Origin: Armatimonadota bacterium
Lineage (GTDB): Bacteria; Sysuimicrobiota; Sysuimicrobiia; Sysuimicrobiales; Humicultoraceae
NCBI GenBank assembly: GCA_037446215.1
Contig: JBBIJB010000039.1
Location: 1 to 20,569, forward strand
Direction of reading: 5' to 3'
Length of the DNA stretch: 20,569 nt
The position numbers were made by a program, and so were the translations under genes. Under the pieces are notes generated by a model, which ran no database searches, had not been told where the DNA came from, and worked only from the letters and a program-made list of their open reading frames with translations. Positions within the stretch are counted from its first letter, which is position 1; each line of letters opens with the position of its first letter. Of the stretch, positions 13,417-19,611 are shown piece by piece.

Positions 13417-14595
13417 CTACGCAGTTGATGTCGTACGGACCGCGGGGATGGTGAAGGAGAACGCGCTTCCCTTCCCGAGCCCGCCGCTGGCGGCCCAGAT
13501 CGCTCCCCCGTGGGCTTCGACCAGGTAGCGCGCGATGGTGAGACCCAGCCCGCTTCCTCCCACAGGTCGCGAGCGGGAGCGGTCCACCCGGTAGAAGCGC
13601 TCGAACAGGCGCGGTAGATGCTCCTCGGCAACTCCATGCCCCGTGTCCCGGACTTCTATCTGGATCCACCCGGGCTTGACCCTGGCCGAGATCGTGACGG
13701 CCCCAGGCGGGTCGGTGTATTGGATCGCGTTGCCGATCAGGTTGATCAGCACCTGCTGGATCCGGTTGGGATCGACCTCGGCCGAGGGCAGGCGTTCGGG
13801 GAGCTCCAAGCTCATGAGGAGCCCCTTGTCCTCGGCCTGCGGCCGCAGCCGTTCGGCCACAGCCGTTACGAGGTCCGCCACCGCCGTGGGCCGCCTGCTC
13901 ATCGCCAGCAGGCCTGCGTCCAGCCGCGACAGCTCCTCAAGGTCGCCGACCAGCCGCTGCATCCTGTGCACGTCCGCGGATACCCTTGCGAGGACCTCGG
14001 GCTCCGGGGAGAGCACGCCGTCGGTGAGCCCTTCCACATAGCCCCCGATGCCGGCCAGCGGGGTCCGCAGTTCGTGCGCCACATCGGCCAGCAGGGCGCG
14101 GCGGCGGGCCTCGGTCTTCTGCAGTGCCTCGGCCATCGTGTTGAGGCTGTCGCCGAGCTCCGAGATCTCGTCGCCGCCACCCGCGGGGACCCGCTCTTCG
14201 TAGTGGCCTTCGGCTATCCGGCGGCTGACTCCGGCCATGATCTGCAGGGGATGGGCTACGCGCCGCGCGACCAGGAGGCTTACCGCGCCCGCTGCAAGGA
14301 CCGCGGCGGCGCCACCTACAAGCAGGGCATCCACCAGACCGCTCCTGAAGAGATGCTCGACCGGCGTCGAAGGAGGTCCCCCCAGGCCCCGCCTGCCGCC
14401 CCCGGCTCCGCCTCCTCCTAGGCCGAGCCCCCCGTAGGAGTCGGACGCCTGTATCCTGCGGGCTATCTGGCTCGGGGCGAACAGGCTCGCGGACGCGGTC
14501 AGGACCGCGAGGCCGACAGCGATGACCGCCAGATAGGAGAGGAACAGCCTGGTTGCCAGGCGTCCCCCCGCCCTCGTCACAGTCCTACCCCACAT
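13417..14595 (-). CDS. HAMP-containing sensor histidine kinase (HisKA, BaeS-like)
   Basis: Two TM helices, HAMP (GDEISELGDSLNTMA), H-box DVAHELRTPL, N-box NLIGNAIQY, DTGHG, FERFYR, GSGLGL. Confidence 0.94.
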   Translation of the reverse strand: MWGRTVTRAGGRLATRLFLSYLAVIAVGLAVLTASASLFAPSQIARRIQASDSYGGLGLGGGGAGGGRRGLGGPPSTPVEHLFRSGLVDALLVGGAAAVLAAGAVSLLVARRVAHPLQIMAGVSRRIAEGHYEERVPAGGGDEISELGDSLNTMAEALQKTEARRRALLADVAHELRTPLAGIGGYVEGLTDGVLSPEPEVLARVSADVHRMQRLVGDLEELSRLDAGLLAMSRRPTAVADLVTAVAERLRPQAEDKGLLMSLELPERLPSAEVDPNRIQQVLINLIGNAIQYTDPPGAVTISARVKPGWIQIEVRDTGHGVAEEHLPRLFERFYRVDRSRSRPVGGSGLGLTIARYLVEAHGGAIWAASGGLGKGSAFSFTIPAVRTTSTA

Positions 14596-14607
14596 CGCAT
14601 CGTGCGG

Positions 14608-15297
14608 CTATCCTCCGTCGAACCTGTATCCGGCGCCCCTGACCGTGGTGATCACTTCCGGCTTGCTCGGGTCGTCTTCGAGCCTCTTCCGGAGCTCCTT
14701 CACATGGACGTCCACGACCCTCTCATCGCCGTAGAAGTCGCTTCCCCAGACCCTCTCGATGAGCTGGGCTCGGCTGAAGACCAGGCGGGGGTGGGTGGCC
14801 AGCGACAGCAGTATCTCGAACTGCAGGTTGGTCAGAGCCACGGGCTCGCCGTCCTTCCAGACCCGCCGCTCTCCCGGATCTATGCGCAGGCGCTGGAAGA
14901 CCAGCGGCGCCGGCCTCCCGCCCCGGGTGCGCCCCCTTCGTAGGACGGCCTTCACCCTCGCGACCAGCTCGCGGGGGCTGAACGGCTTGGTCAGGTAGTC
15001 GTCGGCTCCGATGCCCAGTCCCAGGACCTTGTCGCTCTCGTCCGAGCGGGCGGTGAGGAGTATCACGTAGGCCTCCGACCACTCCCTGACGCTTCGCAAC
15101 ACCTCGATGCCGTCCAGGCCCGGGAGCATGACGTCCAGCACGATCAGGTCCGGGCGCAGGCGGCGCGCCGCCTCCAGAGCCGCGGTTCCGTCCTCCGCCG
15201 CCTCGACCGCAAACCCGTCGCGCTCCAGGTATCTCCTGACGAGGTCGCGCACGGACTCCTCGTCGTCTACCACCAGCACCGTAGGGGGTGTGGACAT
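14608..15297 (-). CDS. OmpR/PhoB-family response regulator
   Basis: VLVVDDE, LDVMLPGLDG, LLTAR, GADDYLTKPFSPRELVAR; winged helix ERVVDVHVKELRKRL, TVRGAGYRF. Confidence 0.95.
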   Translation of the reverse strand: MSTPPTVLVVDDEESVRDLVRRYLERDGFAVEAAEDGTAALEAARRLRPDLIVLDVMLPGLDGIEVLRSVREWSEAYVILLTARSDESDKVLGLGIGADDYLTKPFSPRELVARVKAVLRRGRTRGGRPAPLVFQRLRIDPGERRVWKDGEPVALTNLQFEILLSLATHPRLVFSRAQLIERVWGSDFYGDERVVDVHVKELRKRLEDDPSKPEVITTVRGAGYRFDGG

Positions 15298-15488
15298 AGT
15301 CCCCGTGTCCTCTTGGGCCAGGCCGAGGGCAGGGCTACCCCGGCCGTGCCCTGTGCTCCTCTACTATCCGCGCCTCCACGCGCACGCGCCATCACCGGTC
15401 GGCATTCGGCGGGCGCGATCCCACATCTGGACTCTTACCCGCGCCGGCCGGAGTTCCTGCCGGGCGCGCCGCATCCGCGGCGCCCTGT

Positions 15489-15526
15489 GGGGATAATCCC
15501 CTCCGCGCCTCTCAAGGATACCCCGA
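15489..15526 (+). promoter_or_regulatory. Candidate response-regulator binding sites upstream of the redox operon
   Basis: Palindrome GGGGAT-A-ATCCCC (15489-15501) and related imperfect copy TCAAGGATACCCCGA (15512-15526). -10-like TACGCT at 15550-15555 with no clear -35. Confidence 0.4.
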
Positions 15527-15565
15527 TTCCGGGCCAGGGCCAGGGTCTGTACGCTGAAAGTGGCT

Positions 15566-15994
15566 ATGAGTGACAAGGCCCTAAGGGTTCTGGTCGCCGC
15601 GGGCGATGAGAGGTTCCGCGGGGCCCTCGGCGAGCTTGCCGAGGCCTCGCGCAGCCTGCTTCCCACGCAGATCGAAGTTGAACAGGTCTCTTCGCTCGGA
15701 GCGGTCCGCGAGCGCCTTGGCGCCTGGGCGCCCGACGTCCTGATCCTCGACTGGTACCTTGCTGCGGCCGACGTGCTCACCGCCATACAGGAGCTGGCCC
15801 TGGAATACCCCGGCCTCCGAACGCTGGTTCTACTGCCCGACTCCGGCCGTGAGTACCGCGAGGCGGCGTGGAACGCCGGGGCCTGCGCGTGTGTTCCGCG
15901 CGACCGCATAGACCCGGAGTGGCTGCAGGCGATCCTGTGCGTGATGAACCGAGCCAAGGAGCGCGAAGAGAAGATCCGGAGGCAGGTGGCGTGA
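15566..15994 (+). CDS. Stand-alone atypical (pseudo-)receiver domain protein
   Basis: CheY-like pattern LRVLVA...PDVLILDW...YPGLRTLVL...AWNAGA. Acidic pocket, Thr/Ser and Lys are degenerate. TGA overlaps the next ATG. GTG 15560 is an alternative start. Confidence 0.75.
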   Translation: MSDKALRVLVAAGDERFRGALGELAEASRSLLPTQIEVEQVSSLGAVRERLGAWAPDVLILDWYLAAADVLTAIQELALEYPGLRTLVLLPDSGREYREAAWNAGACACVPRDRIDPEWLQAILCVMNRAKEREEKIRRQVA

Positions 15995-17313
15995 TGGCGC
16001 ATTTGCGCGCGCCGATTCGCAGGGTCGGATCGCTCGTCTTCCTGACCGCCCTGGTGGCGATGCTGATTCTCCCGCTGGGAGTGGGCGCGCCGCCCGCGCC
16101 CTCGGGGCCGGCTCAGAGCGGCTGCGTGGCATGCCACACCAGCCGGACGATGCTGGAGCCGCTCGTGCCTCCACTGCCGCCTCCGCCTGCAGAGGGTGAG
16201 GGGTGAGCGGCCCCTCTGCCCCCGTCGGGGGCACCCTACGAGCGAAAGCTGGTTTCTCAGGCGTTCCTGAAGTCGACCCACGGCCGGCTCGGGTGCACGA
16301 CGTGCCACGCCGGAGCGCCGCAGACGCTGGATCGGAACTTGGCGCACAAGGGGCTCGTGCGTAGGCCCTCCGCGGACCCGATCAAGGCATGCGGAACCTG
16401 CCACTCCGAGACCGCCTCGAAGTTCTCGCGGAGCCTGCACTTCACCGCCCGTGGGCTCGAGACAGGGCTGAAGGCGCTCACAGGCCAGGTGCGGTGGGCT
16501 CTGTCGAAACCGACCTACCAGCGCTCGTGCAAGAGCTGCCACGCCACCTGCGGGGATTGCCACGTCAGCCAGCCGCCCTACATACCGCAGCCCCCGACGG
16601 TACTGGGCGGCCTGCTACGCGGGCATGAGTTCGTGCGCACGCCGCCGGCGGATCGGACCTGCGGCGGCTGTCACAGCGGACGGGTCTACGCCGAGTTCAC
16701 CGGCAGCTACGAGGGCTTCCCGGCGGACGTGCACTTCTCCAAGGCGAAGATGACCTGCACCTCGTGCCACACCGCTGCCCAGATGCACGGTGACGGCAGC
16801 ACGCCTGCCTACAGGCGGGAGGTCAAGACCAAGCCCGCCTGTACCGACTGCCACCCGACGGCCGCCCCAGGCAAGAGCAGGCTGCAGGCGCACAACGTCC
16901 ACGGCAACAAGCTCAACTGCGCTGTCTGCCACGGCGGCATCGTCAAGAGCTGCTTCGGCTGCCATGCCGGCGAGGGCTCGAGATCGCAGCCCACGTTCAA
17001 GATCGGCCGGAACACCGACCCAAACATACCCAACGCCTTCACGGTGCTCCGGCACATTCCGACGACCAAGGACATGATCGATCGGCCGACCGGCCTCTCT
17101 GGGGCGCTCGCGAACTTCGACCGAGTCCCCACGTGGAAGCCGGCGACGCCGCACAACATCCAGCGGGTGACGGCTCGCAGCCGCACCTGCGACGCCTGCC
17201 ACAACAACCCAAACCTGTTCCTGCGGCTACAGGACCTTGATCCCAGGGGCTCGCAGGCAAACGGCAGGGTGGTTATGTCGCCACCCCCGCCGCTACCACC
17301 AAGACCAAGGTAG
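15994..17313 (+). CDS. Secreted multiheme cytochrome c (11 CXXCH), putative selenoprotein with Sec71 encoded by in-frame TGA 16204-16206; 439 aa
   Basis: ORF-track pieces 15868..16206 and 16339..17313 share a frame. The bridge is open and reads AAPLPPSGAPYERKLVSQAFLKSTHGRLGCTTCHAG. Signal peptide occurs only in the upstream piece. Heme motifs: CVACH, CTTCH, CGTCH, CKSCH, CGDCH, CGGCH, CTSCH, CTDCH, CAVCH, CFGCH, CDACH. SECIS-like hairpin follows the TGA. Confidence 0.85.
16207..16233 (+). other. Putative bacterial SECIS element
   Basis: UGA, 10 nt, then UGCCCCC-GUC-GGGGGCA: 7-bp stem (16217-16223/16227-16233), apical loop starting with GU, 17 nt between UGA and loop. Confidence 0.75.
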
Positions 17314-17325
17314 GAGGTATTCAGA

Positions 17326-17769
17326 ATGTACAAGAGACTCTCGATAGTCGCCCTGCTGGCAGTAGCGCTGATCGTGGCGCCCGCTGCCGCGGCACCTTCT
17401 CCAACGCCTGGGGACGCCGCCCTTCAGTTCATTACCAACCTGCCCGACGGCTTCCGCAGCATCGCGCCCGCGGCCCTCAAGACCCGGCTGGACGCGGGTG
17501 AGAAGCCGTTCCTGCTCGACGTCCGCGAGCCCAACGAGACCGCGGCGGGCGTCATCGCAGGGGCGGTCGTGATCCCGATCCGCTCCCTCGCCGCGAACAT
17601 GGGCAAGATCCCCACGGTCAAGGAGGCCGAGATCATCGCCATCTGCCAGTCGGGGCTGCGCTCTTCGTACGTGGCCATGGCGCTCGTGATGAACGGCTAC
17701 ACCAACGCCAGGACCATGTCGCTCGGGATGCGCGAGTGGTACGCTCAGAACTGGCCCGTCGTCAAGTAG
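17326..17769 (+). CDS. Secreted single-domain rhodanese (sulfurtransferase)
   Basis: Signal peptide MYKRLSIVALLAVALIVAPAAAA, LLDVREPNE, GVIAGAVVIP, active loop ICQSGLRS, SLGMREW. SD AGGAGG. Confidence 0.92.
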   Translation: MYKRLSIVALLAVALIVAPAAAAPSPTPGDAALQFITNLPDGFRSIAPAALKTRLDAGEKPFLLDVREPNETAAGVIAGAVVIPIRSLAANMGKIPTVKEAEIIAICQSGLRSSYVAMALVMNGYTNARTMSLGMREWYAQNWPVVK

Positions 17770-17790
17770 GAGCCAGGCAGGCGCAGTAGC

Positions 17791-17828
17791 GAGCACCCCC
17801 GGGCCCATGCCCGGGGGTGCTTGTTCTT
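17791..17828 (+). terminator. Intrinsic terminator of the redox operon (probably also serves the convergent two-component genes)
   Basis: AGCACCCCCGGGC-CCAT-GCCCGGGGGTGCT (13-bp stem) followed by TGTTCTT. Confidence 0.85.
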
Positions 17829-17852: not shown

Positions 17853-18515
17853 CTAGGGCTCCTCTTCCAGGAGCCCCCTGCGCAGCGCGTAGCTCACCAG
17901 ATCTGCCCGCGTGTTGAGCTCCAGCTTCTCCATTATCCGGGAGCGGTAGGTCTCGACGCTCTTGGGGCTTAGGCCGAGCTGCTCCGCGATCTCGCGGGAG
18001 GTGAAGCCGGAGGCGACCAACTTCAGCACCTCGCGCTCCCGCTCGCTCAGCCGGTCGTAGCTGTCTCGCTCCTCGCCCCTGCTCACGCCCGCGATGACAT
18101 CCTCGAGCAGCCTTCGCGTCATCGCCGGGTGGAGGAAGGCGCCCCCGCCGGCGACCGTGCGGATGGCGGCCACCAGCTCCATGTCGGCGGCGGTCTTGTT
18201 GACGTACCCTGCCGCCCCCGCCTTCAGCACCGGGAACAGGTAGCGCTCCTGAGCGTGCACCGTGAGGATGAGTACCTGTGAGGGGAGGTCAAGGGCCCGT
18301 ATCTGCCGCGTCGCCTCCAGCCCGTCCAGCCCGGGCATGCTGATGTCCATGATCACGACGTCGGGGAGGAGCCGGCCGCTGAGCTCAACCGCCTTGTGGC
18401 CGTCCGATGCCTCGCCCACGACCACCATATCCGCCTCCTGCTCGATCAGCGTGCGCAGGCCGGTGCGCAGCACCGGGTGGTCGTCCGCCAGCAGCACACG
18501 AATCGGCTTAGCCAT
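17853..18515 (-). CDS. NarL/FixJ-family (LuxR-HTH) response regulator, NreC-like
   Basis: VLLADDHPVLR, MDISMPGLDGLEAT, ILTVH, GAAGYVNK; HTH LSEREREVLKLVASGFTSREIAEQLGLSPKSVETYRSRIMEKL. Confidence 0.95.
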   Translation of the reverse strand: MAKPIRVLLADDHPVLRTGLRTLIEQEADMVVVGEASDGHKAVELSGRLLPDVVIMDISMPGLDGLEATRQIRALDLPSQVLILTVHAQERYLFPVLKAGAAGYVNKTAADMELVAAIRTVAGGGAFLHPAMTRRLLEDVIAGVSRGEERDSYDRLSEREREVLKLVASGFTSREIAEQLGLSPKSVETYRSRIMEKLELNTRADLVSYALRRGLLEEEP

Positions 18516-19611
18516 TGCCGCCTCCCTCCCTGGACGAAGATACCCGGTCCGGCGCGAGGGCGGCCACCGCGGTTCCGCCGCCCGGCGACGACCTGATCGT
18601 CAGTTCACCGCCTATCAGCGCCATCCTCTCGCGCATCCCCGAGATGCCGAGCCCACCCCGGCCGGGCCGCAGCACGCTGGGTGTGATGCCGACGCCGTCG
18701 TCCCTCACCTCCAACTCGATGCGATCCTCCCCGCGCCGCAGCCGTACCCAGGCGCGGCTCGCGCCGGCGTGGCGGCGCATGTTGGTGAGGGCCTCCTGGG
18801 CGACCCGGAACAGGGCCAACTCCACCTCGGGACGCATCCGACCCTCGCACCCCTCACACAGGAACTCGATCTGGGTGGGCCCCACGGCGTTCAGGTCGTC
18901 GACGTAGGCGTGGAGGGCGGCGGTCAGCCCCAGGTCGTCAAGCACCGCGGGGCGGAGCTCGACGGCGATCCTGCGGACGTCCTCCAGGGCACGCGCGGCA
19001 AGCTCGCGTAGCTCCGTCACCCTCTCCTGGGCCCTCTCCGGTGTCCGGGCCTGTTCGAGAAGGCGGAGCCGGACGAGCAGCGAGGTCATCGACTGCGCGG
19101 CCTCGTCGTGAAGCTCCCGCGCGATCCGGCGGCGCTCTTCCTCCTGCGCCCCCAGGATCCGGCCGGGCAGATGCTTCAGGTGCTCGGCCTGCTCCTCGAT
19201 GGCGGTCACCATGCTGTTGAATGTGTCCGCGAGGCGGCCGAGCCGCTCGTCCGGCAGTCCTTCCGTAGCCACCCTGACACCGCTTCCGCCCGCACGGATG
19301 GCGTCCACCGCCCCCTGGAGGTTGTCCAGCGGCCGCAGGACCGCCCTCAGCACCAGGTAGTTCAGCACGAGGCTAACGGCCAGCCCCACCGCGGCGAAGC
19401 CCGACATCAGGCCGTAGTGCGGGTGTCCGGGGTGGAGCGCCCCGTGTCTGAGCGCCACCGTCATGCCCGTGATGGCGCCGCCGACGACCACAACGGCGTT
19501 CACCAGGAGTATCTTGTGGAGCAGGGGGATCCGGGCGATGCGGCTCAGGGCGCGGCCGGGCAGCAAAGGCAGGCGATCTGGCAGCGTCGGCGGGGCCTCT
19601 GGGTGGGTCAC
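18508..19611 (-). CDS. HAMP-containing HisKA_3 sensor histidine kinase (NarX/NreB/UhpB-like)
   Basis: Two TM helices, HAMP, QEEERRRIARELHDE, LRPAVLDDLGL, FRVAQEALTN, RDDGVG, GLGISGMRER. 8-bp overlap with the regulator. Confidence 0.94.
   Translation of the reverse strand: MTHPEAPPTLPDRLPLLPGRALSRIARIPLLHKILLVNAVVVVGGAITGMTVALRHGALHPGHPHYGLMSGFAAVGLAVSLVLNYLVLRAVLRPLDNLQGAVDAIRAGGSGVRVATEGLPDERLGRLADTFNSMVTAIEEQAEHLKHLPGRILGAQEEERRRIARELHDEAAQSMTSLLVRLRLLEQARTPERAQERVTELRELAARALEDVRRIAVELRPAVLDDLGLTAALHAYVDDLNAVGPTQIEFLCEGCEGRMRPEVELALFRVAQEALTNMRRHAGASRAWVRLRRGEDRIELEVRDDGVGITPSVLRPGRGGLGISGMRERMALIGGELTIRSSPGGGTAVAALAPDRVSSSREGGGNG

Follow-up and report, generated by a model that had tools for sequence, protein, structure and literature searches.

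The closest described systems to the gene considered here are two families of multiheme cytochromes c. For MccSep/ExtKL of Geobacter sulfurreducens (GSU2937-2936), a report of 2026 gave the first biochemical proof of a multiheme cytochrome selenoprotein; in the accessible part of that report, MccSep is a polysulfide reductase with five hemes, a heme-ligating C239 and a selenocysteine (Sec), Sec325, on a C-terminal Ig-like domain, and the Sec beside a heme reduces polysulfide, selenite being reduced too (PMC13510729). The rhodanese ExtH is encoded within the ExtKL gene cluster (PMC5877670, accessible part). The second family, octaheme tetrathionate reductase (OTR; Shewanella oneidensis, structure 1sp3), is counted as a selenoprotein, 'GenBank annotated', in the accessible part of a selenoproteome review of May 2026 (PMC13188914). 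Here we describe an undecaheme cytochrome c selenoprotein gene at 15994-17313 (+) of a 20,569-nucleotide (nt) stretch, the whole of which we call the window (contig JBBIJB010000039.1 of assembly GCA_037446215.1, Armatimonadota bacterium; phylum Sysuimicrobiota). Homologous sequences and the Sec machinery of the genome make it almost certain that these coordinates hold one gene for an exported 11-heme cytochrome c with Sec at residue 71, and the core of the protein resembles OTR.

The gene runs in a single frame from ATG at 15994 to TAG at 17311-17313 (coordinate 17313 is the final base of that stop codon), and its sole in-frame TGA is at 16204-16206. Read through, it gives 439 residues including Sec71, with 368 sense codons (16207-17310) after the TGA. 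The ATG shares one base with the TGA of an upstream open reading frame (ORF), and a Shine-Dalgarno-like GGAGG, read from the sequence, lies 11 bases 5′ of it (15978-15982, +). The basic and hydrophobic N-terminus resembles a signal peptide over residues 1-31 (15994-16086, +), judging from its basic n-region, hydrophobic core and VGA followed by PP. It is followed by the heme-1 motif CVACH (residues 44-48; 16123-16137, +), which is 5′ of the UGA and invariant in the homologue alignment A1, by a Pro-rich stretch and by AEGEG-U71-AAPLPP, within which the motif [SA]EGEG-U-A[AG]xP is conserved. Heme motifs 2-11 (residues 101-403; 16294-17202, +) begin at residues 101, 133, 179, 186, 223, 255, 283, 309, 320 and 399. 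The product thus has 11 CXXCH motifs and 22 Cys, all of them inside the motifs and zero elsewhere. The earliest in-frame ATG, GTG or TTG past the TGA is the TTG at 16339, which is 3′ of the CTTCH codons (16294-16308); contigs of run X4 carry C for T at 16339 and 16257, which turns this TTG into CTG. The initial annotation, made from the letters of the window, had listed the N-terminal features up to PAEGEG and the TGA, the 368 codons with ten more heme motifs, the start-free interval that would cost a separate second gene its CTTCH heme, and the confinement of every Cys to CXXCH; the sequence, its translation and the ORF positions agree on all of these. Since the G+C-rich window is full of long shadow ORFs (for example 15364-16563 (−), 399 amino acids (aa)), the open frame alone is weak evidence, and it is the ten heme motifs together with their conservation in other genomes that raise the observation above chance. 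An AlphaFold2 (AF2) model built from 70 sequences had a mean predicted local distance difference test score (pLDDT) of 85.5 and a predicted TM-score of 0.81; the arm bearing Sec (residues 61-80) scored about 70 pLDDT, and a helix at 13-25 scored low.

The source genome (2.16 Mb in 149 contigs, 91% complete) encodes the machinery for Sec insertion. We found that selA, selB, tRNA-Sec and selD all score over curated cut-offs, and that selB (340.9 bits), selA (490.6 bits) and a tRNA-Sec with anticodon TCA are side by side on contig C16. The selD gene (G000:C18:15924-16847, locus L007) is itself of the Sec type and contains an in-frame TGA, which means at least one further selenoprotein in this organism. 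TGA is also the ordinary stop of 3 of the 14 neighbouring genes, and therefore the genetic code has not been reassigned.

We then compared the codon at 16204 with its counterparts in other genomes. Within the same order (60 genomes), six full-length matches each had one internal TGA, as did two partial matches (loci L021-L026, L029 and L031), and the flanks of this TGA read AEGEG-(TGA)-A[AGV]P. The nearest named relatives of the window gene, at 75-76% identity, were in Ca. Fervidifonticultor and Calidihabitans (Sysuimicrobiota). A scan of one genome per species, covering 185,579 species, returned at least 559 loci with relatives; locus counts on the site codon refer to the best 80 of these (L034-L113). 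They span at least seven phyla (Sysuimicrobiota, Methylomirabilota/Rokubacteria, Tectomicrobia, Nitrospinota, Nitrospirota, Spirochaetota and Thermodesulfobacteriota), and the Thermodesulfobacteriota loci include L057 of Desulfonema magnum 4be13, an isolate that is cultured and fully sequenced. At 78 of the 80 loci a stop occupied the Sec site, and every one of the 77 codons read was TGA. The exceptions were L072, where the codon was unread, L037, which is ended by the end of its contig, and L100, which has CGA (Arg). All 11 CXXCH motifs were kept at every locus examined. The CGA of L100 (4178-4180; Syntrophales) is one base from TGA, and the gene downstream of it encodes another multiheme cytochrome, not a rhodanese. 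L072 (Spirochaetota) has an extra TAA at 230-232, where relatives have Gln, 16 codons 5′ of the Sec site, so that the locus is a pseudogene unless the TAA is a sequencing error.

Proteins already in the database gave a complementary view. Among 120 matches listed, most cover 72-83% of the query because the entries begin past the TGA; 11 cover at least 89%, and 10 of these were fetched. Seven of these ten full-length non-Sec homologues (P0047, P0049, P0051, P0070, P0075, P0079 and P0094) have Cys at the Sec column or adjoining it. The TGA at 16204-16206 is also retained in contigs of three further runs, which come from the same study and are not independent. On these comparative grounds the reading of UGA 16204 as Sec is strongly supported, and we see very little room for doubt about it. 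The central proposal of the initial annotation, one 439-residue exported 11-heme selenoprotein, is thus upheld by the conservation of TGA or Cys and by the Sec machinery, all four genes of which (selA, selB, selC and selD) it had suggested searching for. Its expectation that homologues would show TGA or Cys at GEG-x held for the 77 loci read and for seven of the ten non-Sec proteins, with no TAA or TAG; the other three proteins and L100 have neither. Two possibilities that it had named as damaging fared poorly: a two-gene form in which each gene has a start and a signal peptide of its own was not seen among the loci examined, and a base-call error is at odds with the recurrence of the TGA in the three other runs of that study.

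A quick maximum-likelihood tree of 87 rows, rooted at the midpoint without an outgroup, had Sec-type rows throughout both major clades, with Cys-type and Cys-less rows nested within them. This fits, without proving, an ancestral Sec that may later have been replaced; the rows are uneven, Sec rows having come from the genome scan and non-Sec rows from the protein search.

A hairpin like a selenocysteine insertion sequence (SECIS) follows the UGA at a distance of 11 nt (16217-16233, +), with a 7-bp stem UGCCCCC/GGGGGCA and the apical loop GUC. Other clades have a GU-loop hairpin at equal distance with different stems: UCCGUCG/CGGCGGA with loop GUCC, GCUCC/GGAGC with loop GUU and, in another clade, a bulged stem UCCCCCG/CGGGCGGA with loop GUU. 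When each sequence was compared with 200 synonymous-codon variants made with the codon usage of its own gene, all 77 distinct sequences were more stable than the variant mean (median z -1.61; 49% below -1.65), the sequences being related and not independent. A GU loop occurred in 37 of the 77 real sequences, in contrast to 14% of shuffles. An uninterrupted stem of at least 5 bp (74 of 77 real sequences, 71% of shuffles) was non-discriminating, as G+C-rich shuffles form stems often. The evidence from the hairpin is softer than that from the codon itself.

We asked how the protein relates to known multiheme folds. In an exhaustive VIA-align search the OTR structure 1sp3_A was the top match to the model (Z 9.7, root-mean-square deviation 4.4, 267 residues, model residues 93-439), the next match having Z 4.9. 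Alignment by hhalign with 11 OTR-family sequences gave 98.35% and E 1.1e-14 over 192 columns, placing residues 118-318 on OTR 2-256, so that hemes 3-9 of the window protein correspond to OTR hemes 1-7. Foldseek found no match in the PDB at E ≤ 0.001. A sequence profile searched against PDB chains had as its best match 28pb_A, 'Cytochrome c' (E 2.6e-8, residues 87-190), and 1sp3 was absent from its 55 matches at E ≤ 1. We conclude that the multiheme core is OTR-like over hemes 3-9 and probably heme 11. The protein is, however, no ordinary OTR: its score to TIGR04315, 19.6 bits over its full length and 23.3 bits with the segment past the UGA, is far under the 375-bit cut-off, and it has three extra hemes, 1, 2 and 10.

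The OTR family also has a Cys or Sec, on the segment ahead of its second heme motif. One of 12 OTR-family loci fetched, L131 (G119:C191:4242-5594, −; 591 bits to TIGR04315), is of the Sec type and has TGA where ten other aligned members have the Cys of NNF-C-I. In the Shewanella enzyme the active heme is reportedly Lys-ligated (Mowat et al. 2004), and Cys64 is likewise said to be near the active site. The OTR loop K...NNF-C/U aligns to residues 155-178 of the window protein, in which there is no Cys or Sec; Sec71 is therefore not the OTR Cys/Sec site. Instead, Sec71 sits on an N-terminal extension, an added module of heme 1, arm and heme 2 that is absent from OTR. Kinship with OTR is one of two key facts missing from the initial annotation, the rhodanese partner described below being the other.

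MccSep/ExtKL shows no recognizable sequence relationship to the window protein but is its best functional analogue. A direct comparison with NF040886, the ExtKL/MccSep model, gave 8.9 bits (E 0.47, over a stretch of 69 positions), in contrast to the 250-bit cut-off, and NF040886 gave no match in the general NCBIfam profile search of the protein. The two architectures differ, as the initial annotation had suggested of ExtKL: the window protein has 11 hemes and not five, an N-terminal arm and not a C-terminal domain carries its Sec (residue 71), and it has no free Cys to ligate a heme. Both are, however, periplasmic multiheme cytochrome c selenoproteins, both have Cys-type homologues, and both genes were split by annotators at the in-frame UGA. 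Gly precedes Sec and Pro follows soon after in both (D-G-U-P in MccSep, G-E-G-U-A-A-P in the window protein). A rhodanese gene is nearby in both; in the accessible part of the MccSep report it is ExtH, a lipoprotein of a porin cluster (PMC13510729), whereas in the window family the rhodanese is immediately adjacent or fused.

Profile searches brought up no closer family. No NCBIfam 20.0 model reaches its cut-off on the protein; the best matches, scoring 37-44 bits where the cut-offs are 200-800, were to ExtN, ExtO and ExtM from the selenite/tellurite operon of Geobacter. Pfam returned generic cytochrome c7/c3 domains only, and ESM Atlas generic c7/c3/c554 cluster names only. TsdA, SoxAX and DsrJ are His/Cys-ligated c-type cytochromes whose sulfur chemistry uses a chalcogen side chain positioned at a heme, although they have two or three hemes and Cys, not Sec. 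They showed no sequence relation to the window protein in the NCBIfam, Pfam and PDB-chain searches run.

Immediately downstream, the window encodes an exported single-domain rhodanese of 147 aa (17326-17769, +), which starts 12 nt past the cytochrome stop codon with its own GGAGG. It matches PF00581 with E 2.1e-13 (51.0 bits, cut-off 22.2 bits) and has the active-site loop C107-Q-S-G-L-R112, of which C107, S109 and R112 (CxSxxR) are invariant in 15 rhodanese sequences (alignment A4). Pfam identified a same-strand rhodanese directly downstream at 70 of the 80 loci, and tblastn added one more at L037. The rhodanese is a single domain of about 147 aa in the Sysuimicrobiota/Methylomirabilota clade and a tandem of about 295 aa in most others. 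In addition, we found a natural fusion, P0121 (725 aa), which starts directly past the Sec site and runs through hemes 2-11 into tandem rhodanese domains. The adjacency at 70 of 80 loci and this one fusion point to a partnership of cytochrome and rhodanese. One source labels many post-UGA cytochrome fragments 'thiosulfate/3-mercaptopyruvate sulfurtransferase', a name that was probably transferred from rhodanese-fused members.

A further indication of function came from the candidate heme ligands. Among 87 full-length sequences, eight His outside the motifs are invariant (96, 118, 149, 211, 247, 265, 300 and 387), and H303 and M253 are kept in 84 and 86 of the 87, respectively. With at most ten conserved His or Met for 11 sixth-ligand positions, at least one heme is without a conserved His/Met ligand. 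This heme could be the catalytic one.

These results can be combined into a mechanism. UGA 16204 would be decoded as Sec by SelB and tRNA-Sec, helped by the hairpin at 16217-16233, and the cytochrome would be co-transcribed with the exported rhodanese. Polysulfide, thiosulfate or persulfides would supply sulfane sulfur, which the rhodanese would bind at Cys107 as a persulfide and present to the cytochrome. There, Sec71 would attack the presented sulfur to form a Se-S intermediate, and its cleavage by electrons from the heme chain would set sulfide free. The pair would thus be a molybdenum-free periplasmic sulfane-sulfur (polysulfide/thiosulfate) reductase, working like MccSep on a different scaffold. 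The Sec-heme chemistry is proposed by analogy with MccSep, and the hand-off from the rhodanese is modelled on the Sud-Psr system of Wolinella succinogenes. There, a periplasmic rhodanese-type carrier passes polysulfide sulfur to a terminal reductase, which is the same hand-off from sulfur carrier to reductase, although Psr is a molybdopterin enzyme, in contrast to a heme-selenium protein without molybdenum. Taken as a whole, the explanation that we find best, an exported Sec cytochrome with an OTR-like core acting as a rhodanese-fed sulfane-sulfur reductase, is rather probable on the comparisons above. A sulfur or selenium redox enzyme that works with the rhodanese is likewise the probable general identity of the protein. 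The specific persulfide-reductase chemistry, argued from analogy, is a more tentative proposal. More speculative again, though possible, is a second, independently evolved heme-selenium centre, in which an OTR-type core would have gained an N-terminal two-heme module and an arm placing Sec at an open heme and, with a dedicated periplasmic rhodanese, would have become a widespread molybdenum-free sulfane-sulfur reductase.

Several observations weigh against this interpretation. Three of the ten non-Sec proteins (P0065, P0103 and P0092) and L100 keep 11 heme motifs with neither Cys nor Sec, so the residue at this site is dispensable for folding and perhaps for some function. These four homologues also give some evidence against an obligatory role of Sec as a heme ligand, which the initial annotation had entertained. 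The hairpin of the window itself had z of only -0.91 and -1.03, which is not significant; with pairing held in a fixed register across all clades, 71% of cells were paired, as compared with 67% in shuffled data, and a register slid by three columns covaried more than that of the hairpin. A single consensus hairpin register for all clades was rejected for these weak pair statistics. An adjacent same-strand rhodanese is missing at 10 of the 80 loci: among these, it is on the opposite strand at L083 and upstream at L057 and L062, and there is no rhodanese among the ORFs examined at L048, L056 and L081. No electron-donor gene is encoded beside the cytochrome in the window. In Syntrophorhabdaceae an exported Fe/Mn superoxide dismutase (SOD) is encoded downstream of the cytochrome. 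Finally, the hosts of the family include strict anaerobes as well as lineages of nitrite or methane oxidizers, a range as compatible with housekeeping or detoxification as with respiration.

Some of these points feed other explanations. The pair might serve detoxification, not energy metabolism, by periplasmic reduction of selenite, tellurite or reactive species of oxygen or sulfur. Such a role would suit the spread of the family over physiologically diverse phyla, the SOD genes after the cytochrome or rhodanese gene at L061, L065 and L073, the weak ExtN, ExtO and ExtM matches and the reduction of selenite by MccSep (PMC13510729, accessible part). The Ext matches, however, score far under cut-off and extend over heme-packing regions of a generic kind, an SOD gene is the neighbour at only 3 of 80 loci, and eleven hemes are costly for a pure detoxifier, which leaves this role improbable. 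The OTR-like core suggests another function, that of a small-anion reductase: tetrathionate, thiosulfate, nitrite or hydroxylamine would bind the open heme 4 (OTR heme 2), Sec would be auxiliary, and the rhodanese would handle a sulfur product or substrate. The core homology found by hhalign and VIA-align speaks for it, as do the Cys or Sec that the OTR family itself has beside its active heme, TGA in L131, and the promiscuity of OTR noted in the accessible part of the MccSep report (PMC13510729). We consider this reductase unlikely, if less so than detoxification, because the TIGR04315 score is a small fraction of the cut-off and a near-universal rhodanese points to sulfane sulfur and not to nitrogen oxyanions. 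The counterpart of the K...NNF-C loop, too, lacks Cys.

The shortage of conserved sixth ligands would also suit a Sec that is a structural or electronic axial ligand, forming a His/Sec heme that tunes the potential of an electron wire without catalysis. The His/Cys hemes of TsdA, SoxAX and DsrJ are precedents. MccSep has such a heme as well (PMC13510729, accessible part). The four homologues that keep 11 hemes with neither Cys nor Sec argue against it, as do the moderate confidence of the Sec arm in the model and the rhodanese, which a wire does not need. To our knowledge, moreover, Sec in selenoproteins is almost always catalytic, and we judge a purely ligating role a little less probable even than detoxification. 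Least credible of all is that the TGA is a true stop; the locus would then be a pseudogene, an assembly error or a pair of genes, one for a monoheme peptide of 70 residues and the other for a 10-heme protein without a leader. Gene callers do read the TGA in this way, in P0001 and in most database matches, and the window's own hairpin is statistically unremarkable. Against this, the codon is TGA and never TAA or TAG in the 77 loci read, with both flanks conserved and Cys in other homologues; it persists in the contigs of the three further runs, and the Sec machinery is complete. No start precedes 16339, and the TTG there is CTG in one strain variant. The second part would also be without a signal peptide, although c-type hemes are attached outside the cytoplasm. 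We therefore return to the rhodanese-fed sulfane-sulfur reductase as the interpretation that we prefer.

The surroundings of the pair vary among loci. Downstream of the rhodanese gene in the window is a terminator-like hairpin (17788-17825, +; 17 pairs, 12 of them G-C; one site, with 0.8 expected by chance), which is suggestive of the end of a cytochrome-rhodanese transcription unit. Upstream is an ORF of 144 aa (15560-15994, +) whose TGA is at 15992-15994 and whose match to Response_reg (E 3.4e-4, 21.2 bits) is below the 30.2-bit cut-off; as its stop overlaps the cytochrome start by one base, the two are probably co-translated. This receiver-like ORF is confined to the lineage (7 of 86 loci by tblastn). 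The operon is flanked by two two-component systems, at 13417-15297 (−) and 17853-19611 (−). One pairs an OmpR-type regulator with a HAMP/HisKA kinase; in the other, the regulator is of the NarL/LuxR type and the kinase is a HisKA_3 kinase. The NarL/LuxR-type regulator has a weak likeness to TtrR, the tetrathionate regulator (71 bits, cut-off 290 bits), and tblastn likenesses to the two-component neighbours occurred at just 4-14 of 86 loci. Further away, at 1762-2637, the window encodes a DUF6772 protein (E 8e-117) that is unrelated to the cytochrome.

Among the relatives, Fe/Mn SOD genes with an N-terminal extension come after the cytochrome or its rhodanese on the same strand in loci of the Syntrophorhabdaceae type (L061:6372-7106, L065:5338-6153 and L073:5585-6283), which hints at a link with oxidative stress. 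At L065 and L073 the exported SOD follows the cytochrome. Genes resembling ResB (22 of 81 loci) and CcsA (21 of 81 loci) are just upstream on the opposite strand, mainly in Spirochaetota (for example L051:152-1917). The ResB/CcsA-like pair (System II cytochrome c maturation) may be a dedicated maturation system.

The family has largely escaped annotation. Standard gene callers miss the gene, as the initial annotation had foreseen: the database itself represents the window gene by P0001, a fragment of 318 aa, and the entries of most homologues are 'hypothetical proteins' of 340-365 aa that start past the TGA. With the gene divided by these callers, hemes 2-11 end up in a leaderless entry that is named 'hypothetical protein' or, mistakenly, sulfurtransferase, the latter misnaming probably following from the rhodanese fusion. 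The family is absent from the models of NCBIfam 20.0 and Pfam. It is not among the cytochrome entries (ExtKL, the GSU2204 family and the OTR family) in the accessible part of the May 2026 review (PMC13188914). Another entry in the table of that review, 'Hypothetical protein DG, GUxG, NF049953', was considered and rejected, as it has no match on the contig. The accessible text of the MccSep paper does not describe the family, its supplementary tables being outside the comparison (PMC13510729). A paper on Fervidifonticultor makes no mention of multiheme, rhodanese, selenocysteine or thiosulfate. More generally, we found no description of the family in the literature searched, subscription journals and supplementary tables lying outside that search. 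Multiheme cytochrome c selenoproteins are thus known, but the present architecture, position of Sec and coupling to a rhodanese are undescribed in the literature searched.

A relative of this family is present in at least 559 species-level genomes, and its recognition would correct thousands of annotations. Many uncultured anaerobes and chemolithotrophs would gain a selenium-dependent enzyme in their sulfur-cycle inventory, and the selenium requirement of the hosts would be tied to periplasmic sulfur chemistry. Alongside MccSep, the family would offer a second natural test case for the catalytic cooperation of selenium and heme. Since Desulfonema magnum 4be13 is a cultured and sequenced host, the question is testable at the bench. 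If the family is indeed a sulfane-sulfur reductase, it would give Spirochaetota, syntrophic Thermodesulfobacteriota, Nitrospirota, Methylomirabilota, Nitrospinota and Sysuimicrobiota an unrecognized sulfur-cycling route that is invisible to current annotation.

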